A stretch of DNA of 62,710 nt, the filler included, from Dugesia japonica (lineage: Eukaryota), in NCBI GenBank assembly GCA_001938525.1. It is 5 parts of 5 records of this genome, joined end to end, with 100 filler letters (N's around TTAATTAATTAA, not from the genome) between each part and the next. Parts side by side here need not be neighbours in the genome. Positions count along the whole stretch, not along the records: positions 51,084 to 62,710 come from MQRL01638843.1; 4 more parts are not named here. One strand, 5' to 3'. Within the stretch, counting starts at the first letter, position 1. The number at the start of each line of letters is the position of its first letter. Shown one piece after another: positions 3,336 through 61,870 of this stretch. Made by a program: the position numbers and the translations under genes. A model generated the notes under the pieces. The model saw only the letters and a program-made list of their open reading frames with translations, made no database searches and had not been told where the DNA came from.

Positions 3336-3901
3336 GGAATTTTGAAAAAAAGGCTACCCCCTTGAATTTTATTCGTCGTTTCACCACTACTTATATATAT
3401 TCAATAAAAGGAAAAATAACAACCAAATGAAATTAAAAGAAAAATTGATCCAATTCAAAAGCATCAAAAAATTCTAATTATAAAAAAAATTCTCATTTGA
3501 AAATAAGAAAAAAATCGCTAATTAATGATTTTTATTTGTTCGGATTCCTGTTATAAAATTTTGTGTAAATTATTTTCATTACTTGAAATAAACTTGCTAA
3601 GTGAAAAGAGAGAATCCATTGAGATTCTAATTTTTTTGATAGCATTTATTTAACAAGTTTTCAGTAAAATCAGTTTCTGTTTTGTTTAAAATTTAGTTTC
3701 AAAATATTTATCATACTAAATTAATAAAAATTTGAAACTGAAATCAAAATTATAACTAAATTATAATTAACAACAACAATTAGTGAAAAGTAAATAGTCT
3801 ATGAAATTACTGCTTAATTGGTAAAATAGAGTCAATAATTAACAAAAATCGCATTAATACTATTTTGAATAAATTAAAACAATAATTAAATAGTTTTATA
3901 A

Positions 3902-4040
3902 TTACAGTTATTGAGAGAATAATTGTAGGACTTAACCATTGGTCGCATTTGAGATTTCATCAAAATAAAGAAAAAGCTTCGATCCAAATAAAATGTATTA
4001 GTAAAAAAGTTCAAATTTTCGACAATTGTCTTCGAAGACT
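3902..4040 (-). mobile_element. Degenerate copy of the Penelope-like/hammerhead short repeat family
   Basis: Shares GAGAATAATTGT(A/T)GGAC..ACCATTG and AAAGCTTCGATC with 58930-59175 and 60213-60417. It has a degraded GAC-AATT-GTC-GAAA core. Confidence 0.65.
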
Positions 4041-6190: not shown

Positions 6191-6231
6191 NNNNNNNNNN
6201 NNNNNNNNNNNNNNNNNNNNNTGCTCGTACC

Positions 6232-10715: not shown

Positions 10716-13700
10716 ATGAATAATAAAGTTTCCGATAATAAATCATCTCAATTTATACTTCCCAAAATTCCAAGTAAACGAACCATCAATGATCAGCGTG
10801 TAAATTTAAAAGGAAATGGAAGCAGTGATAGTGGAGCTGAAACTAGTGATTCTGACGATAGAACATTTTCTATCGAAACACTCAGATGTTCATTTTGTTC
10901 TTATGCAATAAATGAATTGTCAGCTTATGTAAACCATCTAAAAAACTTACATGGTACTGAATCTCTACAATGTATGACTTGTCATCAATTTCTTTCACTT
11001 GAAAATTTTCAAAGGCATACCTCTAAATGCAAAGGAACTCATTCTTGCGATTATTGCGGAGCAACATTTGCTCAGAAGTCATATCTACAACGTCATATAT
11101 CTAGAATTCACTTAAAATCTAACTCTGGATTTCTATGTGAAATATGTGGTCATATATTGTCTTCTAATAATAATTTAAAGCAGCATAAATTAATTCATAC
11201 TGGTTAGTCTAAATAAATTTGAATTAATATAATACTACGCTTTTTTTGTGAATTAATGACTTAAAATACTTAATTAATATTTTGGAAGCAAACGACGAAT
11301 ATTAAGAAAATAAATAAATTTTTATTTAATTTATTTTAATAACTATATAATAAAGTTGATTCTTGTTAAATATTTGAAAATGATGGAATGATANNNNNNN
11401 NNNNNNNNNNNNNNNNNNNNNNNNNNNNNNNNNNNNNNNNNNAGATTTTCGTTTTAAAATTGAATTTTTGAAAATAATTAGGATAATAATAAGTAAAATT
11501 CATATTGTAATATAGTGTTTAGTAATATAAATCGATGATTTTCAGCAGTTCACTGTTCAATTTAATTGTTAAAATTATGGTTTAGTTTTACGGAAGTCAT
11601 CAGTTTGACAGGTTCTGATTTTATTGAAAAATATTTTCCTTTGAAATCTGTTTTTAATGATATAACGATGGGAATACACGCAATTCTGTTTTTACATGAT
11701 AGAGATGTTTCAGAAAAATTCGTGTAAAAATTGTTTAAAAAAAGATGACATACAATAAGCGCTGCTTATTGTGATCACTGGTTATTAGAATCAATCGCTT
11801 TATAGAATCCAATTAAAAAAAACCGTTGTTTTTTGTGTTCTAATAATAACATTGTTATTAATTTATTATTAATCACCCATTATTCATAATCGAAATTTGA
11901 TAATTAGTGTAAATAAAATGGAGTGAATTAATTAAAACAATTTCATTTGATATTTATTGTGTACTCATTTACACACGAATAAACTATATCAGTTTTCATT
12001 GAGTATCTTGCTATACCTTACTCTTGTTCTTGGCGGATTATTTTCCGGTCAATTTTTATCCTCATTGCTTTATTTCCCCATTGAAGTTCAATAGAAGTTA
12101 TAATTCCATATTGTTAAAGAGCCTTATTAGTTCAAAGAATGTTGACAAACATGATCATAATAAGCGGCGCTTATTGTATATGATTAACTTCTGAATTCTT
12201 GCCTCCGTGAATAATTACAAAAGTTCATTGTGCAATGAAAAAGACTCTTATTTCGTTTATAAATTAAACTTTATTTACAAAATAAATTCAAAGATATTTG
12301 AAAATCTGTAAAAAATAATTCTTTATATTGACCTTTTGTTTACTAAACTGAATTTATTGTGGAAAAGTATCGAGGGGTTTAGGAATTTATAAAAGAAACA
12401 ATTAGACTCTGGTGCAGAGATGACAGGAAGTTTCACCAATGCATGGGGCGTTACACCCGTTACATTTAAATAGATAGACTAGATCGGAACACAAGCCTAA
12501 ATGGGTTATGGATTTATTATTGAACATATTTATAAACTTATGGGATTGAAAACCAATTTTATTCATCGGAGCAACTTCCTCTCATCTCAGCACCAGACTC
12601 CAAGAGCATAGTCAAATAGTGGAAATAGTAATTGTTAGATGAATCTGTAACACTCATCAATGAATTTAACAAATCAGATTGCTCCATAAAACTTTATTAA
12701 TAAAACTATTAAAACAATAATTGTTTATTCAAACAAAGTAAAAACAATTTCAAATCTGGTCGAAATATCTCAATATTATACAAGTGAGTTTCGATTTTAC
12801 ATCAATTAAAAAGTAATTTTTTTAATTCCAAATAATTATTTTACCCTTAATTAAAGAAACTATAAAATTGTTATGGCCAGAAAAACATACGAACCATTTA
12901 AGCATCCTTTACGCTTTTTGAACATATTGTCTCGCAAAATATTCTCGTCACATAATCTTGGACTCATTTCAGCACATCGTCTGTGCATATCGTCTCAACA
13001 ATCGTCTCAGCACACTGTTTTTCACTTTGACAAACTAAAGATGACTGAATACTTAGCTGACTTTTCAGCATGTGTATATTGAATTGGTTGATTTGATAGA
13101 CTGACTGAATTGATGAGTATGACAACTTGCACTGATATATAACAGGAGTCAGATTTGAGTAGTTTAAAAAGATAACCTTGAAAGTTTAAATAAAACAAGT
13201 ATTTAAATTAGTTATCACAATGTAATCAACTCATCTTATGTTAAGAGATGTTTTTATATAATTCTGTTAGTTTTAATTTTTTCCGTAAAATCGAACAGAA
13301 TTTTCATATTTTATTTAAATTAAAAATAAGGGTGGCGTAAAATCGAAATTTACTTGTACGCTTTTAAATTTTTTTCTTGTCTAAAATTTTTTTAAAAATA
13401 AAATGACTTTATTATTTTAACACGCTTGTTTTTTTATATATATTTAATAATCTTATTTAAAATAAATATTTATTATATCAACTTGTATAATTTTTAAAAT
13501 AAAATACAAAGATATTTTGAATCACAAAAATAAAAGCTTCAATCAAATTTTGTTTCTTTAGATTTTGAAAATAATTCTATATTTTGACTTTGTCTTCTTC
13601 AGGAATTGAATTTTTTTTAAAAATCTTTTAATAATGTGTATTTGAAAAATATATTTAATGCATTATTATTGTAATTTATATTTTATAAAATTGTGACTGA

Positions 13701-26239: not shown

Positions 26240-26399
26240 GTAAGATTGTTTTTAGGGCTAGTTTCGTTCTGTCCCAACAATATTATTGCGTAATTTAAGT
26301 GTCTATGGTGAGAAAAATAATAAATCTAAATGAAATTTAAAGCTAGCGAAAAGTTAAGTCTATTTAAAAATTAATTTAGTTTATAAAGATGTTTCGTGC

Positions 26400-27060
26400 A
26401 TCACTAAAGAAACTTATGAATGTGCATGTCAAAGTTGGACTACATTATATCAGATATTTATTTCCGTTTTAATGTTCACCACAGAAATTCAATAGTTGGT
26501 GTGTTTGCATCAGTGTGTCAATATTAAAAAATTCCTCAGAAAGATTTACTGTCAAATGTTCAAATCCGAAATGTTTAGTGAGTTTATAATATGCTCTCCA
26601 TTGATCAGAATAAATCATTGTTCCAACTTCCACATATTTTTGTAATAAAGGTTGCAGCACATTTCTACGATTATCTTGGCAAATTTCAGGTATAAATTCA
26701 CCATCACAACATTGAACATGATTAGTTGCAATTTCTAATAATTAAAAAATCCGTGACCCTTCATCTATTCGTCTTTTATTATATTTTCTTTTTCTAATTT
26801 TTGTCTCTTCAAATTCGACAATAACACCATTACCACCAAGTTTTCTTTGTGCTTGTTATTTGTTGCACCAATCTATTGTCAATTTTCTGCGGAGGTTTCT
26901 CTTATTATTCGATCATAATTTGTGTCGCTGACTGAAAACATGGATGTTATAGTCATTACTATTCATTGAAATATTTGAAACCATGAATTTTTTGATGAAA
27001 GTTTTTTAATCTCATGCGTTCATTATTGCCATGTCTATCGATCAATTCTTAGCCACATTT
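26400..27060 (-). pseudogene. Merlin/IS1595 (ISXO2-like) transposase remnant
   Basis: LGGNGVIVEFEETKIRKRKYNKRR; GTMIYSDQWRAYYKL..FEHLTVNLS. Confidence 0.85.
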
Positions 27061-27465: not shown

Positions 27466-27565
27466 NNNNNNNNNNNNNNNNNNNNNNNNNNNNNNNNNNN
27501 NNNNNNNNNTTAATTAATTAANNNNNNNNNNNNNNNNNNNNNNNNNNNNNNNNNNNNNNNNNNNN
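27466..27565. other. Artificial contig spacer
   Basis: N44-TTAATTAATTAA-N44. Confidence 0.95.
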
Positions 27566-29429: not shown

Positions 29430-32165
29430 CTTTCAATGTTTCTTTCGTTCCTCGTCTAATTCTAAATTATAATTAAGTAGAAACTTGCTTACCATCCACG
29501 GCTCTGTATATCTTTTTTTTAAGTAACCCACACTCTTTGGTTTTCACCATTACCAAATCTCCAATCTTTAATGTAGTGTTCTTATTTTTTGCTTTATTTT
29601 CTTTTGGAACCTGTTTTCTCTATTCTGTATTTCTCTCCATTTGTTTTTTTAAAGTTATTCTGAAAATTCATCTTGTCGATTTCTACATTTACAGTCAAAA
29701 TATCCGGTGTCAAATACATCTTTTTCCCAAATAAAATTTCTTAAGCTATCATTTCATTACTTTGATGGTAATATGAAGCTGAAAATGATTGCTTTATTTG
29801 TAATTTATTACACACTTGCTTCGTCATTTCCGATTTAAATTCCATTATCAGAATTAATGATCCTCGGAATCCCAAAGTACGCTATCCATATTTCGAATAT
29901 TAGTTCGGTAACTGTCTTTGCAGAAATATTCTTCAATGGTATTAACGCTATATATCTAGAAAAAACATCGATGATTCCTAAAATATATGAATACCCTTAG
30001 GAATTTTGTGGCGGTTCAATTATATCACAACAGATCATTGCAAATGATTATGTCGCTATAAAATAAAATTTTTAATATTGTACCCCGTTTTATTTCATTG
30101 CTTTCTCTAAGCATATAGCATACAATTTGCCACAAATTTCTCCTTATCTTTTTCCATGTCTATCCATTCATGATATCTCTTGAAATCAGTCAAAGTTTGT
30201 TTAGTATTTGAATGGCCTAATTGACCGTGAAAATATTTTAAAATATCATTGATTTTCTTTTCATTAAACCCTTTATGAGTATCTTTTATTTCATTGATTT
30301 GTCGATAACCTTCATTATCTGAACCATTCTTGTTGGAATTTGACACTGAATAATTTTTTGAATTTTTATTGATACCAATTGAATTTCTGTTTATAATCGT
30401 ATTTGTTATACATTGGGTATGCCCCATTCCAATATCCTGATAATTCTACTAATATTTCCAATATTATCTTCCGTATTTTCTACAATATCAATACAACGTA
30501 ATCTCGTATTTCTAAACATTGTAATATTTTTATTTTTTAGGTTAATTATTCTTACTGAGATTTTACCAGTTCCCGTAAGAAATGAAACACTATTAGCAGC
30601 TACACCACAAATATTTGCTAACATATCTTTATAAGGACTAATTAAAACTTCTTTCAAGCAAAAAAATATCGCTATCCTAACTCGCTGAAACAGTTACTTC
30701 CTATTTTCACAAAATTGTAAGTGTATTGTCTAATATAGCTCTCACTGTACACATCTGAGCTCACTTCACACTTCTCGCACTATTATATGGACTTTCGGAT
30801 ACAGTACTATTTAGTTTTCAATCAGCTTTCTTATTTTGGATATGACAGGTACTTTTATTTCATCTAAAGTTACACAATCTATTTTAGTTAAAATTGTGAG
30901 GTTTATCCTTTTCATCTCTTATTCCTATTATGAGTTTTCAGAATAATTTATCCACAACAGTCATCATAATTATATTGCTTTATTTCCTATAGCCACATTG
31001 ATAAAAAAATATTCAATTACCTAAATCTGTGAGTCATTTGCACATTATTGGATCGAAACAGCTTAATTTTTTTGGATTATTTGAAACAGTTTTAAATCCT
31101 GAATCTATATTAATTTTCTCTTGTTCTATTTTGCCTTTAACTATTGATTTGTTTTCTGTGGGTTCGCTTCTTGTATCTGATATCATTGTTCTTAGTCCTT
31201 TGCGAATTAGAAATTTGTATCTTGAACCTCGAATATACTCGTCCAACTTAATTATATCGTCTTGTCATCATTAATTCATTGTCATAATCACAACTGGCTT
31301 CATCATATTCAATATTCGAATTGTACTTTGTTTCTTCAAATTTTCGAAATTCTTCTTTCTGAATATTGGATCTTTTTTCCGTTTTACCAAATCTATTTAT
31401 ATGTCCGGATTCGTTACAGTTCATGCATAATAATGGTTTATTACAATTTCGGGCAATATGATCCTTCCAATTGCAACTATAACATTTTATCTCGTGATCT
31501 TTTGAACTGGATATTTTGGTGAATCTGTTTCGTGGTTTCTTTCCAAATACTTTATACGATGTTCAAGCTCAATTATTCTCGGTTTTAAGATTTCCATTTA
31601 TTGCTATTTTTCCGCCTTGATGTCATTGCTAATAATTCGTAATTTATCTCTATATCGAGTTTCATCTTCTTTTTCATGAAATTAAAAGCTTCTTCAAGAG
31701 TTTATGGTTTCATAATTTCTGTGGCTGTCAAACGATTATTAACGCCTTTAAAAAATATTGATGGGTGTTCTCTGTATCAGATTCCTCGTAATCTAGCATT
31801 TCAAGAATTCCAGCAACTCTGTTGGCAGTTAGATACTGTCTAAAAGTCATATCTTCCTGTTTTAAGGATAAAATATTAATTATTTGAGTTACATTAGTTG
31901 AATTAACATTATATGGTTCGATTAACTTTGTCTTCAGTCATTCGTAGTTTGATTTATTTTATTTAAATTCTGGAATTAATTGGATTTCTAAACGTGTCAA
32001 TAGCTTTTCTGATTATTGTGCTGAATCCGCGGTTTTTGTTCTTCAGTGAATTTTAGAATTCATTAATATGAATAGGAATATTTTCTCCGATAGTAATTTT
32101 TTGGGAAACATCTTTTTTTCATTTAACCAATCGATTAATTCCTGCGGCAATGATCGTGATGCCAT
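29430..32165 (-). mobile_element. Degenerate Gypsy element (gag, CCHC, protease-like region, integrase); no RT/RNase H recognised
   Basis: CMNCNESGH knuckle; FHGQLGH...VANC zinc domain; GIIDVFSRY and FGIPRIINSDNG (rve core). Confidence 0.8.
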
Positions 32166-34400: not shown

Positions 34401-34744
34401 NNNNNNNNNNNNNNNNNNNNNNNNNNNNNNNNNNNNNNNNNNNNNNNNNGGATTTTATTAACTTATTCCAAATATCCGTAGAGTTCTTTGATGATGCTGC
34501 TAAGTTTTTAAGTGAAAATATTTGTGTTTATTCATCTTTTAACTTTTAATTTAGATTTTGAATTTAATTAATGGTTGAAATATAAAAATAATTATCGCAA
34601 AGATAATTATAATCATAAAAATTTTAATTTGTGTTTATTTGTAATTATTAGATTTTCTGTACTATCAGAAACCGAAAAAATTATTATTAATTATTGATAC
34701 TAAATTAATTTATTTTTAAGTTATTTATAACGTTATTCGTTTAG

Positions 34745-35750
34745 ATGGTTTAGTTGATGTAATGATATTTGCTGCCAAAACTGGAAACGGAGAAATGGAT
34801 TCCAAACGTCACAGAGGTTTTGTATTTCTAGAATATGAAACCCATTCAGCCGCAGCGAATGCTAGAAGAAAACTTTCTAAACCTGGATTCCGTTTATGGA
34901 ATCGAGAACTCAAAGTTGACTGGGCAGCTAAAAAGCAAGAACCATCACAAGAAGTTATGTCCAAAGTGTGTCTACAATATTAGGAGAAGTAGATGTTTAT
35001 AATTGATTTTTTCTTCAAATTCCAGGTTAAATCTATTTACGTCAGAAATCTCACTGCTGAATGTACTGATCAGAATCTCAGAGATTATTTTTCTAAATAC
35101 GGTGAAATCGAGTCTATCAAAAAAGTCAGAGATTTTGCTTTCATTCATTTTAAGGATAGAGCCTCAGCAATCAGTGCTTTAGATGTTAGTAATAAGACTG
35201 TTTTACCAAATGATATTAGTAATGGCACAATTGATGTGGAACTAGTCAAACCAAATATAAATTCTCAATACAAATCGGTTGGATTCTCTTTTTCTAACCT
35301 TCTTACTCCACCATTTCTCTCTTATCCATATGGATTACCAATACCTCCTCCAGCGCATTTACTACCTCCGCCTCATCTCATGTATGGAATGACTAGTCCT
35401 TCTCATTTGCCTATATCAAATAAAAATAGACGTAATTTTGCTCATTTAATATATATAAAAACTTAGAATTTTTGTCTCTAGCGTCAACAGCGTGGCATAT
35501 CATGAATGGAATCAAAAGTCCAAATATTTCTAATTTACGTCCAAATAAGGTGAACATCCAAAATAATCGTTCACCTGCTTTCGATACCGGTGTTTCCAAG
35601 TGGACTAATAATATAGATAATCAGAACTTTTCAAATTCTACCACACGTCATAATGTGTCTGTTGGTGCTAGCGGGGATAATTCTGGAATTTCTCAAATTA
35701 ATACTTCAGAAAATAAACCACCTAATTTATATTCTGGAAGTAATTATTAA
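34745..35750 (+). CDS. hnRNP Q/R (SYNCRIP)/A1CF/RBM47-family RRM protein, 3' exons 34745-34965, 35026-35431, 35467-35750
   Basis: GLVDV..HRGFVFLEYETHSAAANARRKL..VDWA..EVMSKVKSIYVRNL..KKVRDFAFIHF. Introns of 60 and 35 bp have matching phases. The 5' exons are not visible. Confidence 0.92.
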
Positions 35751-38700
35751 ATTTTAAAAAATATAAGAATATTTACTTATTAACAATATTAATAAAATAT
35801 TAGAAATAAAATTTCCCTTTCAAAATGAAAATTTTTCTATTATGTAGAATGTTATTATTTACAATCAAGATAGTTTGGAATATTTTTAATGTTTATTATA
35901 CAATATTTTTGGTTTTTATAATTTATTAAAGTGCTCAAATATTTTAAAATGTTAATTCTCTTAGTGTTAAATTTTAATTCGAATATATATTAAACAACAA
36001 TTGAATTTGATCGAAGCTATTATTTCAATGAAATTTCAACAAATGTAAGAACTGTAGTTGAATTAAGAATCATTAGAATAAATTATAATATTTTCCCCAT
36101 CGATAACTCACATCTTATGTATACGATGGATCTAGAGTTTTATAATGAAAATGTTTAAATAAAACGTAACCAGTATATCTTGCACTTATTTAATACTATG
36201 ATATATGGTTTTCTTACTGTTTTTGTTTTCTTTTAATGCGCTTTGTATCTTGCGTGTTATCGATTGGAGAATAGGGTATTGGAATTGGACTTCCTTCTTT
36301 ATAAGAAAACTATCGAACTAAAAGAGTTCTATTGGAGTTCACCCCAAATCTATCACATACTACAGAATACGAAATCCAGTGGTGTATATTTATTTGTGCG
36401 TGCGTGCGTGATGCTCAAAATTTTAAACCTCAAAACTAATGATACAGATTTATATTTAGTTTATTGAAAATTTATAAAAGTTGAAATTTGATAAATATAA
36501 TGACAATAATTCAAAAAATGACCCGGAAAATTTTTAAACTTTCAGTGAAATTAGTGTATTAAAAACCCAGTGGTTTATGTTTGTTTGTTTCTTTGTGCGT
36601 GATTCTCAAAATTTTTAACTTAAAACTACAGCTAAAATACAAAAACATGTAGAGTGAACATGATCAGGCAATTTCCTGAAGTCATTGATGTGTCAAATAA
36701 GGCGGGTAGTTTGTGAGGAAATCAAAGTGGATATGAGTTCATTTAGACNNNNNNNNNNNNNNNNNNNNNNNNNNNNNNNNNNNNNNNNNNNNNNNNNNNN
36801 NNNNNNNNNNNNNNNNNNNNNNNNNNNNNNNNNNNNNNNNNNNNNNNNNNNNNNNNNNACCTCGTTAGAATGCCATAATGGAGGTAAGTATGCATCTTTT
36901 TATCTTTTCTTTGTAAAAATACAATGACACATAAATAAAATTATATTCAAAAAAAAATTCTGCAAATGTTTTTTTTCTACACGTCTTTTTTTATTATGGG
37001 GTGGCTTGCCGCCCATAAACCACTTAGTTATAATATGAAAGGTGTAGAATTATAAAGACTTTTAGCTTAGTCCGCTTGTAGAGATTTCTATGTGGATTCT
37101 TAAGTGAGTAATTTGTGGGTTTATTTATTTTAATAATAATATTTCGGGGACTAGACAGTTCGACACATGATAAATCGCTACAAAGACAAATGAACACAGA
37201 CAAATTGACACATCATCATAATTTTTATATTGTATTTATTATTTTTATTAGTAATTATAANNNNNNNNNNNNNNNNNNNNNNNNTAATGCATTTTTTTAT
37301 ATTTTTAGTAATTTGTACTGGTAATTATAATAACAAATCTTTTGGTATAATTTTTTATAATGTATTTTCTATTGTATTTTTTGTAGTGATAATTATAATT
37401 GTTGTTATGATTTTGAGATTATTACAAAAACAAATCAACGATTGCGTGATTTTGAAATTATATCACTCCAATAATCCGCGAGCTTTAAATTATACAAAGT
37501 GATAAATGTGGATCTTATAACTTAATATGTTTAATATATAATAGATAAATATATTATAATATATAAACTATATAGTATCTGTTNNNNNNNNNNNNNNNNN
37601 NNNNNNNNNNNNNNNNNNNNNNNNNNNNNNNNNNNNNNNNNNNNNNNNNNNNNNNNNNNACCTGGTCGTTTTCCTTAGACTCTAAGGCTTAGAGGAATGA
37701 GATCTTTTTGCTAATTAAAAAAATAGATAATGAACTAATTTTTAAACCGGTATTTATGTAAAATTTTTAGCATGTATGACTTAGAGTATTTACATAAAGA
37801 TACAACATTTTTATATTGTGAATTAAATGTTTACATGAAATCAAGAGAATCTCGTATAATTATTTAAATACGATATAAATTTTATATAATTTCTTACTGA
37901 TTAATAATAGACATTGTTAGATGAGTTTTGAGTACTCATCGGATCATCAACATCAAAATTTAACTCCACAGTAAAATTTATTTCAAACAATAAATTTAAC
38001 CATCATTATTGGTTTATTCAAACACATCAAAACTTTATGCTCTAATTGGAAATTATTTTTCAATAGATTTAAAATTTCAGATTTCATTCAAAATAAATTG
38101 AAGATTTAAAAAAAAATTATTTCAATAACAATTGCAAAATTTTAGATCAAACTTCCATTCAAAATAATTATTTTAAATTCTTAATTAGTTTGTGACTTTC
38201 AATTTTTTTNNNNNNNNNNNNNNNNNNNNNNNNNNNNNNNNNNNNNNNAAAAATTCCAGCTCACTTTTCAAAACAAACTCAGAGACATAATTGTAAAATA
38301 AATAAAAATCGACTATGTTAAATAAAACTTGTTAGTAAACAGAATTCAATAATCGAGTAAATAAAATAAATAGAATTCGAAAATATAGAATTTGTACAAA
38401 AATTTACACAATTTTACCAAAATATAAAATGTAAAAATTATAAAAAAATAATATAAAAAATTATAAAATAAAAGTACATTGTCAAGGGATCATATCAGAT
38501 AAAAGTGTGCTGTCAAAGGGTTGTATTGAATTTGCATTGATTTGCCTTTGTGTCGATTTGTTATGTAACCAAATCTTTCATGTTGATTATTTATTTTATA
38601 ATTCTAAATTATCTTGCAACTATAAGGCACATATTTCTCAATATACTCAATATTTCATTATTCTCTTAAATTGTTCAAAATGAAATATTAATACATAATT

Positions 38701-40066: not shown

Positions 40067-40166
40067 NNNNNNNNNNNNNNNNNNNNNNNNNNNNNNNNNN
40101 NNNNNNNNNNTTAATTAATTAANNNNNNNNNNNNNNNNNNNNNNNNNNNNNNNNNNNNNNNNNNNN
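40067..40166. other. Artificial contig spacer
   Basis: N44-TTAATTAATTAA-N44. Confidence 0.95.
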
Positions 40167-44671: not shown

Positions 44672-46102
44672 TATACCAGCGATAGGTAAACTCGAAATTC
44701 AAAAGAATGTCACAAGAAGGAAAATGAAGAATACAGACAAAAGAAAGAGTCAGACCAGTTACCAAAAGGAATAATTAAAGAAAAAACCGAAATTAAGGAA
44801 CTGAATATGGAGGATGATCAGTAACCTATTAAGTCGCAAAAAGAGAAAAGAAATGTTGGAAGACACAAACAGACTAAGAGAACAAAGAAAGAACAATTAA
44901 TAACAGTAGAAATTAATTCATTAACTGAAAGAAAGAAAGTCAAAAATAATGAATAATTAACGTACAGAAAATAAATTAAATGAATTAATTAGTAGAAGAA
45001 AACAGCGAAATTAAATCAAATTTATATCGGGAGAACAAAGAAATAAACATATAATTAAATTTTATGAATAAAATAAAATAAAATAATTTATTTATTTAAA
45101 TAAAATAAATTATATGAATTAAAATGATTTATTTTGAAGCAGAAAACAAATTATTTGTCAAAAATAAGAAAAATGAAGGTTTTCGATAGTTAAAATTGGC
45201 AGATAAGAAAATTATGGACAAGAAAAAATCGGGGAATTCAAAAATGCAAGTTAGGAAAAAGAAAAGATCCAGAGAAAAGTTATAAGGATCTGAATGTTGA
45301 CCAATAGAACTCCAGTAATTTTGGAATTCCAAAATTCTACCCAATAAGAAGAAATCCTGTGATAAAATTAAAATAACCGGCCAATAAAAATGCCAAGAAT
45401 AATAGAAGGAACGAGGGGGTGAAGAGAAACCGGTATAAATACCGATGAAATTTTCACCAAAATATCATCCTTTTTATCAAAAAAATACTGATGTTGAACG
45501 GAAAATTTTTAATTATCACAGAAGTTGATTATTTTTGCTATTTGATTACTGGTGCAACGATTTTTGGCTCGACTCGAAAATGAAAGATTATGGAGGACCT
45601 CTTGAATCGTTAATGACTACTGAAATAGTGTCAATTCACATGCTATGCTTGCTCCAGATCGGGATTCAGGTCATGTTAGTTGTTTTGCTTATTATAATTG
45701 TTAAATTTATGTACAAGTGACAGTAAAATTTATAATATATTTTTCACTTGTTAAACTTGTTTCTTTTTATTTTTTATTGATTAATTGAACCATAAACTAG
45801 AAAAATCATGATTAATTACGATTAAAATAGATAATACGCTAAAATAGAAACGGATAAAATAAGAGTTACTAGGAGAATAAATAGTAAGAATCAAGTATGA
45901 TTGAAAAACCAAGCGAGTATTATGAAATATGAACCCAAACCAAAGGAGTGCAAGTCTGTACTCGGATTCTGAGTCAACGGCTTCATTCCAAAGATCGAGA
46001 TTTTTGGGGACACCAGATTAAATTCTTTTCGTGGTTTACTAAGCCAACCACCTCAGCCTTGATTATTAAAAAATCACCCCCCCCCTAGATGAAACCCCAA
46101 CA
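44672..46102 (+). mobile_element. ~1.5-kb LTR, empty-site copy of the 51146-55895 LTR; left end lies in the N gap
   Basis: Colinear with 51177-52254 plus 55465-55895. TATAAATA at 45434; ends CCCCAACA. Confidence 0.85.
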
Positions 46103-46296: not shown

Positions 46297-48135
46297 TGGT
46301 GTCAGAAGCTGTTCACACGAGAGCACTCAAATAACTACAAAATTTCCACAATACTTCGAATATCCATCAATGTTGTTCAAGCAAGTTGAAGCAATCTTCA
46401 GGATTTCAAGAATATGAAGAGAAGATTCCAATCTTCTCATGACGGATGGAAGGAAAACCACTGATACATCAATGACCGACATTAGAGCAAAATGGTTCTC
46501 CATACAGAAGAAGTTAAAGAGTGAGATCACGGATCTGAAACAAAGGAATGCACAACTCAGAAGTAAAATTGATAAGATGAAGGAAAGAGAACTGTTGCTA
46601 TCACAAACATGCCGAGCCATGGCAGATATTATTAAGGCCTACGCGGATCAGGCAGGAGTACTGATTTTTAAGTTTTTATGCCCGTTTTTAAATTTCTTTT
46701 AAATTTTTATGCCCGTTTTTTTACTAAGCCTATTTTAAAATGTCTATGAAATATTTTATAACATATTTTAAATTTGATGGTAATTTTTATTTTTTATTTA
46801 TTTGCCAGGGGAGGGGGGTTTTAGGGGGGTCTTCAATGAAAAATCAATGCGGGCAATGCGCCACTATCTACCTACAATCTTATCTACAACTTACTGTCAG
46901 CAGTTCTAGCTACAGAATCCGAAACACCATATACAGTTCTTCGAGAAGCTTAAATCAGCAGTAGCAAACTACCAATCTCAAAACATGTGGATAAAATGCT
47001 TCTCCTCGAACCTCTGGGAGATCAAAGACCATCAGATCGCCTTCAACAACTAGGGAAACACTTCCAAGTGATAGAACCAAATTACAAAGGTACAGACAAT
47101 AGCATGCTGTTAATAGATGCCTTCATAAGAGCAATGCCTCAAAGTATCAAGCCTTATCTCGTCTCTAAGGAAAGCTGCTCATTGACAGAACTAGGACAAT
47201 TGGCTGACAGACTTGCGCAAATTGAATCTTCACAAATTTTACACAGCATCTCAAGTCAAACAAATACAAGCAAAATACAGGAGCTACGAGATGAGATAAA
47301 TCAACTTCAAATGGTTTATGCACAAAAGTCAATATGAACAGATGGAACTTGCTATTACCAGCGCAAATATGAAAAATTAGCCACAAAATGCCGTGAGCCA
47401 TATGATTGGAATTCTAAACAAACACAGGAAAACAGCAAAGGGTCTCAATAATTCCAGTGATTGAAAACCCTATCACTATTGAACCGGAACTCATCTCTAC
47501 AATATTGACTGTTCCAGCAAATTATCAAAGTCAGGTAATAAATTTTCTAATCGACACAGGATCAGATGTTAGTATTCTATCAGCCAAACAATTTCACATC
47601 GATCAATGTGAAACTACCAAACAACTAATTTCAGCTGGTGGTAGCACAATTCTAACTCGAGGACAACGCACTTTAAGCTTTAACATCGTTGGACTTCCAC
47701 AAAAATTCAAGTGGAGATTGATTGTCGCAGAAGTTCGTCAACCGATATTGGGATCAGACTTTTTCAGACATAATGGCATTATAATAGACTGTCGAAGGAA
47801 TCGTATTATTCTTGACAACAACACTGCGCAAGAATCACAAAAGAATGATCATTCCAATAGAACAGCGCACAATTATAATCTACAACACAAACCAGAACTT
47901 TGAATCATGAAAACTGGACCACCTATATCTCAAAGATCTCGAAGGCTAGCTGGAACAATACTTGAAACAGTTCGCCATAAATTTGACAAAACTTCTAGAA
48001 AAAGGAATTGTCAGAAGAAACACGAGCACCAGGGCATCAACGTTGATTGTTGTCAAAAAGAAAGATAATACCTATCGCCCATGCTGTGACTACCAGCTAC
48101 TAAATTCAGTTCCCATTCCTGACAGGTATCCTTTA
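46297..48135 (+). mobile_element. Gypsy internal region: PBS, gag, aspartic protease, 5' RT; truncated
   Basis: TGGTGTCAGAAG PBS (tRNA-Leu-type 3' complement); KFPQYF..LFKQVEAIF; LGDQRPS; FLIDTGSDVSIL..ILGSDFF; IVVKKKDNTYRPCCDYQLLN..PDRYPL. Confidence 0.9.
46439..46702 (+). CDS. 'MADIIK'-family coiled-coil ORF lying inside gag
   Basis: KW..QKKLKSEITDLK..MKERELLLSQTCRAMADIIKAYADQ aligns with 48149-48469 and 54757-55130. Confidence 0.6.
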   Translation: MTDGRKTTDTSMTDIRAKWFSIQKKLKSEITDLKQRNAQLRSKIDKMKERELLLSQTCRAMADIIKAYADQAGVLIFKFLCPFLNFF

Positions 48136-50983: not shown

Positions 50984-51083
50984 NNNNNNNNNNNNNNNNN
51001 NNNNNNNNNNNNNNNNNNNNNNNNNNNTTAATTAATTAANNNNNNNNNNNNNNNNNNNNNNNNNNNNNNNNNNNNNNNNNNNN
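50984..51083. other. Artificial contig spacer
   Basis: N44-TTAATTAATTAA-N44. Confidence 0.95.
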
Positions 51084-53225
51084 TTAGAATATTTAAAAAT
51101 TAATTAGAATTAAGTATTTAAATATGATATTTTAAGTAATGCATCTGTTGGGGTGAATCACTTGATATTGAAAAATAAACCAGCAATTAGGTACACCTGA
51201 AATTCGAAAGAATGTATACGAAATAAAACGAAGAATACAAACAACAGAAGGAGTAAAATCAGTTACGGAAAGGAATAATTGAAGAAAAAGACCGTGATTA
51301 CCGAACTAAAGAAGGAGAGATGACTCGTACAAAGAGAAGGAAATGTTGAAAAAACACAAACGGACTGAAAGAACAAAAAAAGGACAATTGATAACAAATA
51401 AAATTAATTCATTAACTAAAAGAAAGAAAGTCAAAGAAAATGGATTATCATCTCACAGAAAATAAATAAAAACGAATTAATTAGCAAAAGAAAACAGCGA
51501 AATTAAATTAAAGTTAATCAGGAAGACAAAGAAATGAACAANNNNNNNNNNNNNNNNNNNNNNNNNNNNNNNNNNNNNNNNNNNNNNNNNNNNNNNNNNN
51601 NNNNTAAAATAAATCTAAGAATTTAAAATAAATTATTTTTAAAAGAAAAATAATTGTTTCATGAAAAATGGCAAAAACAACGACTTTCCATAGTGAAAAA
51701 TTAGCAATTAAAATGGTTCTGGTCTAGAAAAAATCGGAAATCTTGAAAATCTAAGTTAAAAAATCGTTAGGAAAAAAGATACAAGGGTTGGAAGGTTGAC
51801 CAATAGATTCTAAGTCCAAAAATATCAACCAATAAAAGAGCTCACATGACGTTCAAGCCAATGGAAACGTCAGAAAAGTCGTACTATTCCAAATAACCAA
51901 TGAACGAAATTGGGGTGTGAAGAGAAACCGGTATAAATACCGATGAAAATTTCACCAAAAATCAATCTTTATCAGGGAAAATATCGAGTTTGACCGGAAA
52001 ATATTCAATTATCACAAAAGGTGATTATTTTTACTCTTTGATTCATGGTGCAACGATTTNNNNNNNNNNNNNNNNNNNNNNNNNNGGAACCCACAATAAT
52101 CAGTGTCGTTATGAAGATGGGGATCCAAGTTCATGGTTAATTGTTACGCAATTGGTGGTCATGATAAATACAATAAATCCTGTGTGCTTGCTCCGGATCG
52201 GGATTCAGTCATGTTAGTTGTTTGCTTATTATAATCGTTAAATTTATGTACCAGTGTTGGGCTAGAACACCAAAAATGGTGAAATAATAGAGTATGCAAA
52301 GATTGGCAAAATATTCCGAAAGTAAAGAAAAGTAAATATAAGATGGATGAGCTGGACCAGAAAATTGATTATTATGCATAAAATTATTATTATTATTGTT
52401 GTTATTATTATTATAATTATTATGAGAATATTATAAATAACGAAAATAAAAAATTGGGCAGGAAAGAACCAAATTTTATGTTACAAAACTGAAAATAATA
52501 TTAGAAGAAAGGAAANNNNNNNNNNNNNNNNNNNNNNNNNNNNNNNNNNNNNNNNNNNNNNNNNNNNNNNNNNNNNNNNNNNNNNNNNNNNNNNNNNNNN
52601 NNNNNNNNNNNNNNNNNNNNNNNNNNNNNNNNNNNNNNNNNNNNNNNNNNNNNNNNNNNNNNNNNNNNAGCTGATGAAAAATAACACGAAAATAATCAGC
52701 AGATTAGCTGAATCATTCCCTGCTAGACAAGGACTTTCTCTTGGTAACAATCCGAGGTCACACGAGGTGACTGACTGGAGAAACTAAGTCCTTTCCGAAG
52801 CGATGTATCGAAATTCGTACGACACAACACAACAATGAAGACGAAGACAACAACCAATCAGAAACCCGGATTGGACGAAAAACGAAGACGATTGGCGAGC
52901 AAATGAAGCAGGCCAAGTTGGGGTGTAAACGATTAATAAAACTCGTTTGCACCAGAGAATTAAACAGAAAATTTTTAAAATTTTAAAAAGAAAAAAAATA
53001 TTTTACTTAACGAAATTTTATTTTTTAACTATTCATTGGTAAAAACAATTTGGAAATTGCCACCAACTCGTGTCAAGAAGAAGAAAGACAAACCCACAAA
53101 TTTATTATCCAAATTTTTCGGAAAAAGGAGAATTGAAATAAATTCGATTAGTAAGCAATATTTTTTTTATTATTTTATCAAATTTCAAAAATAAAAACCT
53201 TTATTTTTTTCGTTTTCTACATGTG

Positions 53226-55130: not shown

Positions 55131-57537
55131 ACGGAGTATACTGTAAAAATAAATGTTATTCAGTGTTGGTTGGAGTGATTCTGTATTATAGTACTACTTA
55201 TTTATTTGCATCCACTAGATTTATTTTTACTGAGCATGTTAGATTAGTACAGACCGGGTTCACAGGTTTTATAAGTAAGACGCGGTACCGCAAAGTCGCG
55301 CTGAACCTGTGGAAATAAAGGGGTATGTCACAGAGGTGACATAAATACTTGTGGTTTTTAGGTATGCCCCTAGACAGGTAATTGTAATAGAAATTATTGG
55401 AAACGAGATCGGTAAATTTGAAGCTAACATTTTAAAATACCAAATCCTAAAAACCCAACACCAGTAACAGTAAAATTTAGAATATATTTTTTCACTCGTT
55501 GAATTCTTCTATTCCTTATAACAGTAAAAACATAAGGTATTGATTTTTAACCTAAAAGTAGTAATTAAGCAAACTCGATTAAAAATGTTTAACCGTTAAT
55601 GTGAAAAGATTTTAATTAATGAGGACCTCAATAATTGATAAAATGAAATCTAATAAACGAGTTATAAGCTAAAGTCTAATAAACTAATGACTTATAAGTA
55701 ATAAGCATGATTTATAATAAATTTGGACCCAAAACAAAGGAGTGTGAGTCTGTACTCAGATTTCGAGTCAACGGCTCCATTCCGAAGATCTGGATCTTTG
55801 GGGACACCAGATTAAATTCTTGACGGGGTTTTATTAGGCCAATCACCCTAGACATAATTATTAAAAAATCGGCCCACATAGATAAAACCCCAACACATCT
55901 TTGAAAAAAGAAATGAAAGCTATTTGATATATAAATTTTTTAAAATTCGATATTTTGAATATCTTCAATTTTTTGATTTAAGTCTTTTATTCCATCAGCT
56001 TTATAGTTTTCAATAAAACAAGAATCTGTATGTTTATTAAATTGTTTTTTACTAATTTTAAATTTTTCATTAAAATAATTACATTTCCATTGGTAAGTTA
56101 AAGTTTTACAATTTCCAGTACCAATAAATTTTTCTTGACAAACATATATATTCTCTCATTTTAATCAATAAATATTTAATGTGAGTAAATGAGAATATAA
56201 AATGAGGAAATGAGGACTTTGTTCGCATCTTGAAAAAAATTGAATCAAATTAAAACATCTTGAAATAAAAATTATTTAAATATAAAAATGTCTCAGATTT
56301 CAAAATCGAAAGAAGTTAGTCTTGATATTTTAAATAAAATAAAAATGAATATACTAAATAAATTGAAAGATAAAAAATTAGAACATCCAATAAAATCAAA
56401 TAGTAAAATAGCTAAAGAAATAAATTATCCAATAAGAAAATTAAATGAAATATTAAGGAAAATGAATTGATTGAAGAAATTAAAGTTAGAAAAGCAACGC
56501 ACAGATATTCATATGATCCTATTTTAAAAAATAATTTAGAAATTCAATAGGTGAATATATATGATAAAAAATTAAAAATATTTAAAGAATCTGAAATAAA
56601 AAGAAAATTAAAACATAATGAAATATTAGAAGAAAGAAATAAAAAACATGAATTATATTTAATTGCATATGCTAAAAATCCAAATAAACATCCAAAATTA
56701 TGTGATTTAATAAAAAAGTATCCTGAAATTAATTTATCGCAGAGCTATGCTCGAGATTCTGATAATAATCCAAAAGCTGGTGGTATAAATATAAATCTCG
56801 AGCAAAGCTCTGCGAGTAATGAACTTGAACCTGAAATTTTTGATCCTCGAACAGAATTCTGTGAACAAAATTCTATTCAAGAAATTAAACAAAATGACAT
56901 TTATAAAATTACATCTAATATGGATAATATGGATAATATTGATCGAGAATTGATAATAAATTTTAAAAAGTCATACAAAATTTAAAATTCTCAAATTCTT
57001 TCAATAAAAAAATGGATGATTATCTTGATAATGTAAAAAAAGATCCAGAGTTTTTAAATGATTTNAAAAAGATTATCCAATAGTATGTAAATTAACACCT
57101 AAAGAACAAAGTGTAATGTTAAAAGAAATTTATTCAAATTATAAAGCAATTATAAAAACTGGTGAAATTTTAGTTGAAACTATATGTGAAATGAAAATGT
57201 TGAATTAACAGAAGAAAATATTCAATTAAAATATGTATTAAATGATAATAATTTATATAATGATGAAAATTTAAAATTTTATAGACAGAATAATAATAAA
57301 AAAAGAATATTCAAAAGATATCAAATCAATAGTAAATTATAGGTTAAATAAAACTTTGAATAAATTAAATAGTTTAAAATAATGCTTTAATAAATAAATT
57401 ATTATTTAAACAGAAAAAGTTATAAAATTATATGAAGGATGTGATTATTTAATTTTAGAGGTGGAATTTTTAAAATATTTTTTAAAAAACAATATTTTTA
57501 ATTTTTTTTTATTTTTGTAATGTTCTTATCATAGAAA

Positions 57538-58825
57538 ATGGAAGGATTAAAATTAGATATAGACAATAATTATGTTTTTAATCATGTAATATCTAAAAAG
57601 GATTTATTAAAAATATCACCAACAAGTAGTTCAATAGTTAAATTAAATCAACCTGGTGATATATTATTTCAATCATTACAATCAACAAATCCATTAGATA
57701 TTGGAAAATGCAATGTTATATTACAGAATAAAAATTGATACAACTACAGAAACTAAAATAAAATTGGAAAATAATTGGTTTCCAGCATTATTTAAAACAA
57801 TGAGATTTAAATTAGGATCAACAGTAGTTGAAGAAATGAATGATCCAGGAATTATATCAACAATGTTAAATTTAATTTTATATGATGAAGCAGTAAAACA
57901 TTATATAAAAGCATATGGTTGGATTCCAGATAATGAAGATGGTCTTGCAACAACAACAAATAAAGGATATCAATCCAGATTAAAATTATATACTGGTAAA
58001 AAATATGAAGGTTATTTTCCATTAAATAATTTATTTGGATTTATTCAACATTTTAATAGATTATTATATAATGTATTTATACAATTAGAACGTAATAGAC
58101 AAATAGATGATAAATTAATATTTTATGGCAAGTTTAAAATTATTAGCTTTAGAATTACATATTCCAGAATATACATTAAATCCAATAAAGGAAATGGAAT
58201 ATATAGAAGTAATAACAACTAATAAACCTATTCCAGTGTCATTTTTAAATCGAATTTCTGGAAATTAATCAATGGAAGCAGGAACTAATTATTCAATTAA
58301 AATGGCAAATTTAGCATATAAACCAAAATTTATTTTAATTGTATTTAAACCAGCAGAAATATCATTTGATAAAAATAATAATTTATTTATGCAACAAAAT
58401 AGTATAACTAAAAAAATGATAAAAAAGAAAAAGTTACAACAAAATATTGTATAAAAAGTATTCAAATTCAATTAAATAATACATATTATTCAATAAATAG
58501 AATGGAAATGAATATTAATAATAATGAAGAAATATTTCCATATCAAGCATATGTAGAAAAATATTAAAATTTTTTTTAATCAACCACAATCAACATGAAT
58601 TTAATGGAAAACTTTATATTCAATGTTTTGTATGAATGTATCAAAACAAGATTCAAAATTATCAATAAATAATGTAGATGTACATTACATATAACAAAAG
58701 AAACAAATTTTAAATTAAATATATATTGGTGTATATTAGAAAAAAAACATGTAGAATTAAAATTAGCAACTGATAAAATTGTATTTGTTGAAGATGTTAG
58801 AGGATAAGATGTTTCAAAAGGTTAA
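57538..58825 (+). pseudogene. Double jelly-roll major capsid protein (Polinton/adintovirus type), frameshifted
   Basis: LNQPGDILF, IKLENNWFPALF..LGSTVVEEMNDPGIISTMLNLI, FPLNNLFGF, KPKFILIVF; span about 430 codons. Confidence 0.75.
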
Positions 58826-59040
58826 TTTATAATTTATATAGAACATGGAGAATTGTTTGTAAGACTTCACAAAGAAAACATTTACTTGTATTTTTTGTAA
58901 TCAAATAAAATCTAAACATAATAAATCAATTGCAATTATTGCGAGAATAATTGTTGGACGCTACCATTGATCGTTTTTTAGAATTCATTTAAAATAAAAG
59001 CTTCGATCAAAAAAATTTTTGTTATATTTTTTTGGAGATT

Positions 59041-59075
59041 GAATCGATATTTCGACTTTGTCTTCGTCAGGAATT
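59041..59075 (-). ncRNA. Minimal hammerhead ribozyme motif
   Basis: AAUUC-CUGACGA-A-GAC-AAA-GUC-GAAA-UAUC-GAUU. Confidence 0.75.
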
Positions 59076-59088
59076 AAATTGAAAAGTC

Positions 59089-59123
59089 AATTCCTGACGA
59101 AGACAAAGTCGAAATATCGATTT
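59089..59123 (+). ncRNA. Minimal hammerhead ribozyme motif
   Basis: AAUUC-CUGACGA-A-GAC-AAA-GUC-GAAA-UAUC-GAUUU; intact core with a predicted AUC cleavage triplet. Confidence 0.75.
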
Positions 59124-59288
59124 AATCTCAAAAAAACAACATAAAAAAATTTTTTGATCGAAGCTTTTATTTTTTAATCAAGACATTTAAAATTATGAAT
59201 TACAAAGAAAGGGGCGATTTACAAAATAATAAATTAGTTTCATTATTATTAACACAATTTCCACAAGAAACATTTAAAGGAAAAAAGA

Positions 59289-60600
59289 CATATTCCTGGT
59301 CATAATTTTACTGGTCCAGGAACAAATTTTGAGAAAAGATTAGATGAAAATAATAATCCATTTCCAGGAAATGAACCAATAAATCAAGTTGATAAAGCTG
59401 CATATAAATATGATTTAGTATATAAAAAAGAAGATATTGGAGATAGACATATTGTTGATTTAAATATGATTCATGATTTAAATAATATGATTAATCCAAC
59501 ATTAAGAGAAAAATTAGAAGCTGAATTAGTTAAATTAATATTTAAAAGAAACATTCTTATTGGAAAAAGTATTTCAGGAGAAAATTTAGCGACAGAATTA
59601 CATAAAAATATAGAAAACCTAAAAAATATTTAAAATTTATAATTAATGAAATTGATGAAACATGGGGATGTGATATTGCTGATATGGTTAAAAAATCTAC
59701 GGATTCAAAATTTCGTTATATATTAGTTTGCATTGATTTATATTCTAGATATGAATTTTGTGTTCCAATGATTAATAAAATTCAAGAATCATTAAAAGAA
59801 CCATTTGAATTTATATTTGAAGAAAATAATAGAATTCCAAATAGTATATGGTTTGATAAAGAATCCTCAATAAAATCAAAATATTTTGATAAATTTATCA
59901 AAGAAAATAATATTAATTTATATCATACAGAGAATGAGGGAAAATCAGTTTTTGCAAAAAGATTTATTAAAACTTTAAAAAAAAAGTAGAAATATTTTAC
60001 ATCAATTGGAAACTAAAAATGGAATAATAATTTATTATAACAAATTGTCAATGAAAATAATAATACAATTCATAGTTCTATAAAAACAACACCAAAATAT
60101 GCTAGTGAAAATCCAGATAAAATAAAAGAAATTATTAATTAACATAATCATGAAAACTCCAACTTTAATTTTAAACAAAATTTAAAAATAGGAGATCGAG
60201 TTAGAATATTTATTTTTACAATTGCAATCATTGCGAGAATAATTGTTGGACATAACCATTGATCATTTTAGGGAATTCATTTAAACTAAAAGCATCGATC
60301 AAAATTTTTGTTTTTTTATTGATATTTGATAACAATTATAACAATTATAAACAATTCAATTGTTATTAAATATCAAAATAAACAAAACTTTTTATCGAAG
60401 CTTTTATTTTAAATGAATAGAATATTTAAATATAAATAAAAATTTGAAAAAGGATTTACAGATAAATGGACAAATGAAATAATTATAATAACAGAAGTAT
60501 ACAAGACAAAACCAATAACATATGGAATTACTGATTTAGATAATGAAAAGATTTTGGGTAGATTTTATGATAATGAACTTCAAAAAACTATATTTAAAAT
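59289..60600 (+). pseudogene. Parvovirus-VP1-like PLA2 domain in frame with a Polinton rve integrase
   Basis: HIPGHNFTGPGT..PINQVDKAAYKYDLVY reads on to LATELHK. Then WGCDIADM, YILVCIDLYSRY, IWFDKES, GDRVRI, FEKGFTDKWT, GRFYDNELQK, with frameshifts and stops. Confidence 0.9.
60213..60417. mobile_element. Second Penelope-like inverted-repeat insertion, no hammerhead core
   Basis: Same tail and arms as 58930-59175. An 11-bp TSD TAGAATATTTA (60202-60212 / 60418-60428) splits the integrase at GDRVRIF|KYK. Confidence 0.85.
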
Positions 60601-60925
60601 TTTTGTTTTTATAAATTTATAAAATATAATGTAAAAATAAATATAAGAATGGTTAAATATAGAAAGTATAAGATGAAATATATGAATCACTTGAGTTTTG
60701 TAATGAATTAAATTTAATTACTAATATTAGTCCTGGTTTTTGTATATTATAATATTTTATAATATAATATAATATTTCATTTGGCAAATAAAATATCCAA
60801 TGATTTAATTAATAAACAAAAAAGTTGGAATTAGAAAAATTAAAACAAGAAAATAAAAATCTAAAATTAGAAAATGAGAACCTAAAATTAGAAAATAATA
60901 AACTTTAATTTTTATTAAAAAGAAA

Positions 60926-61670
60926 ATGTCTAAAATCTCGCAAAGCACTGCTCGAGTAAAATCCCGCTGATTTGGAATAAAAATAAAAAATTATTTAATA
61001 ATAAAATATTTCCATCAAATTTTAGATTATTAATTATAGGATCATCAGGATGTGGGGAAAATGTATTATTATTAAAAATGTTAATTAACACCGGACTTTA
61101 TACATTATAATAATTTAATTATTTATTCAACAACTATAAATCAATTTGAATTACAATTAATGAGAGAAGGATTTGAAAATGGTTTATCAAAAGAAGATAT
61201 TATTTTAATTATTGAAAAACANNNNNNNNNNNNNNNNNNNNNNNNNNNNNNNNNNNNNNNNNNNNNNNNNNNNNNNNNNNNNNNNNNNNNNNNNNNAAAA
61301 AACCACAAAGTATATTTATAACATTAAGTAATAAACCTAATGATATAATTCCATGTGATCAATTATCGAATGCCTCTGCAAAAAAGAATTTAATTATTTT
61401 TGATGATGTTGTTAATGAAAAAAATCAAGAAATACAAAAATCATATTTTACAAATAATAATTGTAATGTAATTTATATAACACAAACATATTTTCATTTA
61501 GATAAAAATTCAATAAGAAATAATAGTAATTGTTTTATATTTTTTAATTAAATAAAACAGATAAAGATAATTTATATCATGATTTATTTAGTAATATTTT
61601 TTATAATAAAATGGAATATGATTATCAAGTAACATTGCATTGGAAAACAAAATATAATTATTTTTATTTN
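60926..61670 (+). pseudogene. A32/FtsK-like genome-packaging ATPase
   Basis: FRLLIIGSSGCG(K) Walker A, NLIIFDD Walker B, VIYITQTYF, SIRNNSN. Confidence 0.88.
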
Positions 61671-61735
61671 NNNNNNNNNNNNNNNNNNNNNNNNAAAGAT
61701 TTCTTTGAGTAATAAGCGAAAATTATTTGAGAATT

Positions 61736-61870
61736 GATAAAATCATGACTTATAATTTTATAAGAATTTTGTTTTTGAAAAAAATGATAAAATCATGATT
61801 TATGATTTTTATAAGAATTTTATCTCTGAAAAAAATGAGAAAATAATGATTCCTGATTTTATAAGAAACG
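61736..61870. repeat. ~50-bp tandem repeat x3 in the Polinton intergenic region
   Basis: GATAAAATCATGA(C/T)TTAT(A/G)ATTTTTATAAGAA units at ~61736, 61786 and 61837. Confidence 0.75.

Follow-up and report, generated by a model that had tools for sequence, protein, structure and literature searches.

A probable Penelope-like pseudo-LTR pair with minimal hammerhead cores, inserted head to head between two genes of a decayed Polinton in Dugesia japonica

An inverted insertion between two Polinton genes

In the window, that is the whole stretch of 62,710 nucleotides of Dugesia japonica DNA that was analysed, a long hairpin at 58927-59173 sits between the capsid and PLA2 frames of a decayed Polinton (Table 1). 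Judged by sequence, the four features by which we recognise a Polinton/Maverick cluster (rve, double-jelly-roll (DJR) capsid, A32-type ATPase and PLA2-like domain) are present together in one cluster, all of them in pieces, and the element may run off the end of the window. In the Atlas the capsid frame falls nearest to clusters of DJR or major capsid proteins (0.97), at a recognition value below the threshold of the tool. A separate Polinton-type fragment occupies 1-2900 on the minus strand and carries C2H2 zinc fingers, an endonuclease VII domain and frames that by eye resemble a protein-primed polymerase; these last have no polymerase Pfam match. Short tandem duplications adjoin both fragments, at 2948-3327 (period about 195-216 nt) and at 61732-61867 (50 nt).

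The insertion consists of two copies of a repeat placed head to head, just one of which carries a tail, of 64 nt. The inverted arms, 58991-59080 and 59084-59173, pair over 90 bp at 89% complementarity and include a perfect 34-bp pairing (59042-59075 with 59089-59122), and the region folds at -109.2 kcal/mol (z -15.9), an energy that none of 200 shuffles equalled. The preliminary description of this DNA had reported two identical cores, CUGACGA-A-GAC-AAA-GUC-GAAA-UAUC, in inverted orientation 23 nt apart, and we find them identical over 25 nt on either side of the spacer 59071-59093. Each contains the CUGANGA and GAAA boxes in type I order and a UH site, with AUC as the predicted cleavage site. 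An extra base, A, stands between 9 and 10.1 and is followed by a GAC/GUC helix II that includes the G10.1-C11.1 pair. The AUAU is self-complementary and, as already described, is a palindromic 15.2-16.2 element that stands in for helix III. Helix I at this locus reads C-G, U-A, U.U, A-U and then A-U or A.C, which amounts to 2 bp, a U.U mismatch and 1-2 further bp, compared with 4-5 bp in the majority of the family and 6 bp in one subfamily of the repeat.

A minimal-hammerhead descriptor has two matches in the window, compared with a mean of 0.005 in dinucleotide shuffles, none of 200 of which reached two; the two matches are a single duplicated motif and not independent finds. The covariance-model check that had been proposed for the hammerhead gave no match, in that an Rfam scan of the window returned no hammerhead family at E up to 5; the motif is without helix III.

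Table 1. Coordinates in the window of the repeat copies, the hammerhead cores and the Polinton genes.
Feature	Position	Strand	Remarks
Head-to-head pair of repeat copies	58927..59173		
Full-length repeat copy	58927..59078	-	Sense on minus; helix I 5' strand, core, A/T-rich linker, conserved 3' part with terminal stem-loop; loose ends at 58927 and behind 59075 (RNA and DNA runs)
One-sided 64-nt tail	58927..58990	-	8-bp stem-loop near 3' end
Minimal type I hammerhead core, left arm	59046..59070	-	Predicted cut after C at 59046
Junction between the perfect arms, 13 nt	59076..59088	.	Two 5' ends joined head to head
Second, inverted repeat copy	59086..59173	+	5' end intact; without the 64-nt 3' tail
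Minimal type I hammerhead core, right arm	59094..59118	+	Predicted cut after C at 59118
Sister head-to-head insertion, related subfamily	60213..60418	.	Interrupts the Polinton integrase gene; no core; 56-nt one-sided tail
Old solo copy with tail	3891..4040	-	Core decayed; nhmmer E 5.5e-9
Solo copy without tail	13527..13614	-	Core 13602-13578; helix I perfect over 5 bp; G12 to A at 13585
Weak, old 5'-truncated copy	35965..36045 (approximate)	+	blastn E 3e-4; nhmmer E 0.58 (weak)
Polinton major-capsid-like gene, in pieces	57535..58910 (right end approximate)	+	Double-jelly-roll capsid, E 6.6e-4, below Pfam cut-off; left of the insertion
Polinton PLA2-like domain frame	59253..59633	+	PF08398, E 7.7e-7, above Pfam cut-off; right of the insertion
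Polinton rve integrase gene	59606..60622	+	PF00665, E 5.1e-8, above cut-off; broken by stops, frameshifts and the sister insertion
Polinton A32-like packaging ATPase fragments	60934..61551	+	PF04665, E 0.012, below cut-off

A dispersed host repeat and its RNA

By blastn and nhmmer we found five copies of the repeat in the 62.7 kb of the window (Table 1). Two of the five are head-to-head pairs, each tailed on one side (64 and 56 nt), the other three are single-armed, and two window copies have broken cores. The sister pair is flanked by a direct repeat of 11 nt (60202-60212 and 60418-60428), a match that 184 of 200000 random pairs of local positions gave at both boundaries by chance; the 58927-59173 locus and the two solo copies checked show no clean target duplication. 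Stem I had been called imperfect at the locus and perfect in the copy near 13573, and both statements are borne out; that the latter copy is the better ribozyme nevertheless finds no support. G12 is required for hammerhead catalysis, and its change to A breaks the GAAA box of that copy.

Four of 24 sequencing runs (two DNA, two RNA) were aligned to one arm, 58780-59093, at 80% likeness, which favours conserved copies of the repeat; the RNA reads covered were about 6% of run X21 and 25% of run X22. One DNA run placed 18677 contig records on the repeat arm and the other 14787. The summed contig depth in X1, to which single contigs contribute about 3-24 and which is a sign of great abundance and not a copy number, reached 2.1-2.8 million over 58945-58999, fell to 0.85 million over the core and was 43-714 over the Polinton flank. 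Overall, a summed depth near 2.4 million for the repeat compares with 30-714 in the flank, and the abundance so indicated agrees with five copies per 63 kb. The family ends sharply at 58927 and just behind 59075, beyond which the flanks are mixed and AT-rich (agreement about 0.55), and the repeat unit is therefore a dispersed monomer of ~150 nt whose 5' end is the 5' strand of helix I. Head-to-tail joints occur in single contigs only, and the window holds no tandem copy; an opposite-strand joint from 59012 to 59075 recurs in 10 and 5 contigs of the DNA runs and in 14 RNA reads.

The repeat is thus a very abundant, dispersed host family, not a viral one, that was secondarily inserted in the Polinton. 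We reject a virus-encoded ribozyme, since contig depth over the repeat exceeds that over the Polinton flank by more than three orders of magnitude and copies lie outside the Polinton. What had been described as ribozymes inside an endogenous virus does lie in a Polinton, as the PLA2-like, rve, capsid and A32 frames attest; a role tied to the virus is without support, because the family is host-wide and its insertion there secondary.

Among the 40 best-supported of 94 family differences, no core position appears, and a loop II variant at 59057 is the sole difference in the core region. A family consensus lacking the CUGANGA/GAAA core, which the preliminary description had named as refuting the hammerhead reading, therefore does not emerge from these 40 differences. 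No base-pair covariation of helix II was seen among the same 40 of 94, in an alignment favouring conserved copies. The base at 59043 that perfects helix I is found in 217 of 238 reads of X22, in 13 of 13 of X21 and in 92-94% of contig depth, overall in about 91-94% of the aligned family sequence. Both arms of the 58927-59173 locus share the minority mismatch, which points to one template; later gene conversion or fold-back self-priming would fit it too.

RNA reads of the family occur in both orientations, and 95% of them continue into unlike sequence. No pile-up of RNA ends or starts was seen in the two RNA runs, although short or circular RNAs would be missed by poly(A) libraries, and the ratio of core to tail depth was the same in RNA (0.30; by orientation 0.29 and 0.30, in a library that may be unstranded) as in DNA (0.31-0.36). 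The RNA runs therefore give no sign of cleavage. Their pattern shows read-through in host transcripts, with no sign of transcription of the locus itself, and at the coverage given above neither run has an RNA read on the Polinton flank 58780-58889.

Folding supports the earlier suggestion that the long hairpin may sequester the ribozyme. Whichever strand is read through, the antisense arm is transcribed ahead of the motif, the core bases are paired to it at 0.999, and the probability of helix II is about 0, even where the RNA stops 8 nt beyond the core. A transcript begun at the junction avoids the long hairpin yet misfolds, with a helix II probability of 0.002-0.003; by ViennaRNA, in whose model the non-canonical contacts of the core are not included, the active dimer is disfavoured, at +4.7 to +10.4 kcal/mol against -14.2 to -24.2 kcal/mol for the misfolds. 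Given this order of the arms in read-through RNA, and the helix I mismatch that the two arms have in common, the 58927-59173 locus is most likely an inactive passenger. The further suggestion, that the hairpin feeds RNAi against the Polinton, finds no support, since the hairpin consists of repeat sequence only and no RNA read falls on 58780-58889 in the two runs; small RNAs from the hairpin would match the repeat and not the Polinton genes.

Relation to Penelope-like elements

We consider that this head-to-head pair of a short, ORF-less and abundant repeat is probably a pseudo-LTR (pLTR) of a Penelope-like element (PLE) with a minimal hammerhead, inserted between two genes of a now decayed Polinton. 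As far as the cited portions of PMC4209133 go, the minimal hammerhead of PLEs is marked by the extra base between 9 and 10.1, the G10.1-C11.1 pair and the palindromic 15.2-16.2. The motif here shares with it the type I order, CUGANGA with the extra base, the G10.1-C11.1 pair, the GAAA-N-N-U-H palindrome without helix III, a short helix I (about 3-5 bp in that class), mostly solitary dispersed copies and the occurrence of opposite-strand pairs. Rows of the supplement quoted here have the same GAAA-U-A-U-C ending in Nematostella 1 and Latimeria 2 and a 3-bp helix II in C. briggsae. The repeat differs in that its helix II lies at the short extreme (3 bp and a 3-nt loop), that no ORF is attached, and that its sequence is unlike all compared rows of supplement Fig. 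S3. Dual motifs on opposite strands were reported in 2014 in the same source and supplement at a distance of 100-700 bp, compared with 23 nt here, and a Cotesia bracovirus locus there has a second, opposite-strand motif at the 5' end of a truncated PLE; the inverted layout and the viral setting thus have precedent. The earlier assignment to minimal type I hammerheads as in Penelope pseudo-LTRs, which often occur inverted, agrees with both the published traits and the layout. In the experiments given in that part of PMC4209133, single minimal motifs did not cleave and dimers did so weakly.

The insertions of EN+ PLEs offer a second comparison. In the sections cited of Arkhipova et al. (2013, PMC3846280) and Craig et al. 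(2021, PMC8557442), Penelope insertions commonly consist of inverted, 5'-truncated pLTRs head to head, with a tail of 30-40 bp at one end and duplications of 8-10 bp, and pLTRs suffice for mobilisation in trans. The 5'-joined inverted copies, the one-sided tail and solo pLTRs are shared with the repeat, whereas here there is only the pLTR, with a SINE-like fixed 5' end at helix I, and the duplication at the sister copy is 11 nt. The tail, at 56-64 nt, is longer than the published 30-40 nt, which counts against the PLE reading, as do the lack of a clean target duplication at 58927-59173, the absence of helix II covariation and the negative Rfam, RNA-end and dimer-folding results given above. 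Poseidon of Anolis (PAc; Frangieh et al. 2024, PMC11167929, in the parts cited) resembles the repeat in the position of its hammerhead, about 90-120 nt before the 3' end, in having two alternative 3' ends and in its AT-rich targets. The PAc repeat, however, runs into the start of an ORF, and no such ORF was found here in the window; and whereas that source gives no RNA ends at the PAc cleavage site, one genomic copy of the present family stops at its own predicted site. In the same parts, both target strands are nicked and extended by the Poseidon protein, which favours AT-rich DNA, begins at two sites delimiting the tail and helps the hammerhead; the hammerhead itself was dispensable for insertion in vitro.

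Non-LTR retrozymes, proposed to be non-autonomous PLE derivatives, are also short non-coding hammerhead repeats of which monomers occur (Cervera and de la Pena 2020, PMC7229834; Li et al. 2026, 10.64898/2026.07.22.740005; both as far as cited). Theirs are head-to-tail tandem arrays with mostly canonical hammerheads, whereas here tandem joints are rare and the hammerhead is minimal.

An ORF for RT and GIY-YIG linked to the repeat, for which a search had been proposed, was not found within the window: none of its 210 frames of 55 aa or more (210/210) is a PLE-type RT or GIY-YIG frame, and there is none in the insertion. PLE membership is for this reason something that we infer. The 3' part of the repeat, which we had presumed to resemble the end of a GIY-YIG gene, gave no such match. 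A 45-position profile compared with 1.84 billion proteins produced one repetitive, spurious match, a word search produced four candidates, none at E up to 10 (a short query being weak in both), and common family variants create or keep stops.

The anatomy of the pair, the family boundaries, the abundance, the one-sided tail and the target duplication of the sister copy are direct observations, from which we infer the following mechanism. A trans-acting PLE RT/GIY-YIG protein would nick both strands of AT-rich DNA about 10 nt apart, and each nicked 3' end would prime cDNA on the repeat RNA, one from a long start, which includes the tail, and one from a short start. The stem-loop tail at 58927-58990 is a candidate reverse-transcription start. 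The two cDNAs would then be joined at the ends that correspond to the RNA 5' end, giving the head-to-head layout seen twice in the window; fold-back self-priming, proposed in the cited part of PMC3846280, could yield the same product. In source copies, hammerhead cleavage after AUC would require either dimerisation through AUAU or help from the protein.

The sister copy bears on this last step. Loose ends before 59044 give a consensus, from 46 and 47 contigs with agreement 0.72 and 0.8, that by eye agrees with the left arm of the sister up to 60336, which ties the sister to a subfamily with a 6-bp helix I. On the subfamily reading, the left arm ends 1 nt before the predicted cut, two repeats of 9-11 nt come next, the last of these ends on the first post-cut base (60357), and the right arm begins at the second (60358). 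In this one case, the arm ends are possibly the product of a reverse transcriptase that had copied its RNA as far as a cleaved 5' end. By our estimate, in which the two arms are maybe not independent, a stop within 1 nt of the cut site has a chance of roughly 3 in 60.

From these observations we put forward, as a tentative and on balance doubtful hypothesis, that the family is a SINE-like, ORF-less PLE parasite of ~150 nt with dispersed copies on the order of tens of thousands, primed on both target strands, that some of its insertions were copied from hammerhead-cut RNA, and that the sister, with short slippage repeats between its arms, is a record of cleavage in vivo. If this is true, the family-wide 5' truncation points would test directly whether PLE minimal hammerheads cut during transposition. 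The role of the PLE hammerhead is stated to be unclear in the cited part of PMC8557442, and in that of PMC11167929 no RNA ends were detected at the cleavage site of an active Poseidon element. With its many independent insertions and fixed ends, the present family permits a genome-wide count of 5' truncations; if these peaked at the predicted cut, cleavage in vivo would be supported. We stress that the 58927-59173 locus alone is of little import, the back-to-back layout being known and the copy probably dead.

The inverted-pair layout is already known, and the family itself is probably unnamed so far: the published literature that we searched contains no description of it, although repeat libraries may already list it. 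Pattern scans for the hammerhead gave 0 matches in viral contigs and 0 in prokaryote genomes. Two metagenome pattern matches, in GC-richer, coding-looking DNA and without support from helix I or II, were dropped as chance.

Other readings and other contents of the window

The asymmetry of the pair, its 3' stem-loop, T-rich sites and high copy number resemble those of HINE/DINE-1 elements as portrayed in the cited portions of Thomas et al. (2014, PMC4067079). If the insertion were such a non-autonomous Helentron, the arms would be subterminal repeats, the 3' stem-loop a rolling-circle terminator, and the core captured or incidental. Read on the minus strand, one arm indeed lies at the 5' end and the other 56-64 nt from the 3' end, with the terminal stem-loop in addition, and the subTIRs of HINEs are placed in that source 2-4 nt from the 5' end and 38-60 nt from the 3' end. 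The same portions, however, give HINEs at T-rich sites without target duplication, whereas the sister copy has one of 11 nt; their subTIRs are short, about 12-13 nt as against arms of 60-90 nt here, and no hammerhead is described for them there. In addition, three of the five window copies are single-armed, the family end is sharp at the 5' strand of helix I, and depth does not double from the tail to the arm end, a weak point in that short pieces may be missed. We therefore regard a Helentron as unlikely. That the insertion is a foldback or Mutator-type MITE, whose long terminal inverted repeats chance to hold a hammerhead-like word, seems very unlikely to us. Mutator-type MITEs have target duplications of 9-11 bp, and long inverted arms with a duplication of 10-11 nt are indeed seen at the sister copy; but the ends are asymmetric by 56-64 nt, the length of the arms varies between copies, solo arms exist, and the motif has all the traits of the PLE minimal hammerhead at a chance rate of 0.005 per window.

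Two further readings concern the pair itself. It might be functional, with bidirectional transcription from the 13-nt junction giving two sense RNAs that cleave as a heterodimer, or with hairpin small RNAs silencing the locus. The two 5' ends are complete and adjoin at the junction, the arms match perfectly over 34 bp around the core but have mismatches and gaps elsewhere, and for Penelope a bidirectional promoter of head-to-head pLTRs has been proposed and small RNAs are known (PMC3846280, in the part cited). We think this quite improbable nonetheless, given the helix I mismatch in both arms, the misfolding of the free sense RNAs, the lack of any RNA read on the left Polinton flank and of any pile-up of RNA starts, and a hairpin without Polinton sequence; the perfect core is explicable by recent origin or gene conversion. 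It might also be a short-read assembly artefact, a chimeric fold-back of one repeat copy, in an assembly that is fragmented with many N gaps and in which no aligned contig spans the whole stretch. The arms have diverged, by about 5 substitutions and 4 gap positions per 90 columns, unlike a copied read, which makes an artefact unlikely; another pair, of different construction and flanked by a target duplication, is found 1 kb from this one, and two DNA runs and one RNA run contain opposite-strand joints. We rate the artefact reading as extremely improbable. The reading as a PLE pLTR pair is the one that we retain.

The window holds several other features. Imperfect inverted arms of ~250 nt, foldback or MITE-like, lie at 11848-12104 and 14022-14288 around 1.9 kb that include the 13527-13614 copy. 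The gap markers at 17295-17394, 27466-27565, 40067-40166 and 50984-51083 are identical (44 N, a 12-nt AT palindrome, 44 N) and are artefacts that inflate repeat counts. A low-complexity open frame of 357 codons at 25220-26293 (+) has no Pfam match. The stretch is dense in transposons, with fragments of mariner, Tc5/pogo and ISXO2-like (Merlin-type) transposases and an LTR-retrotransposon integrase and zinc knuckle at 6223-6411, 23241-23426, 26472-26741 and 30110-31562. Diverged direct repeats (70-86%) of LTR-like character, 44716-45563 with 51220-52059 and 45925-46037 with 55719-55831, surround a retroviral-type protease frame (47418-47900) and Gypsy-like gag and RT fragments. Frames for C2H2 zinc fingers of host-like type, together with an RRM gene, are found at 10680-11204, 16547-17262 and 34720-35750, and the RRM frame has relatives that are 95-97% identical.
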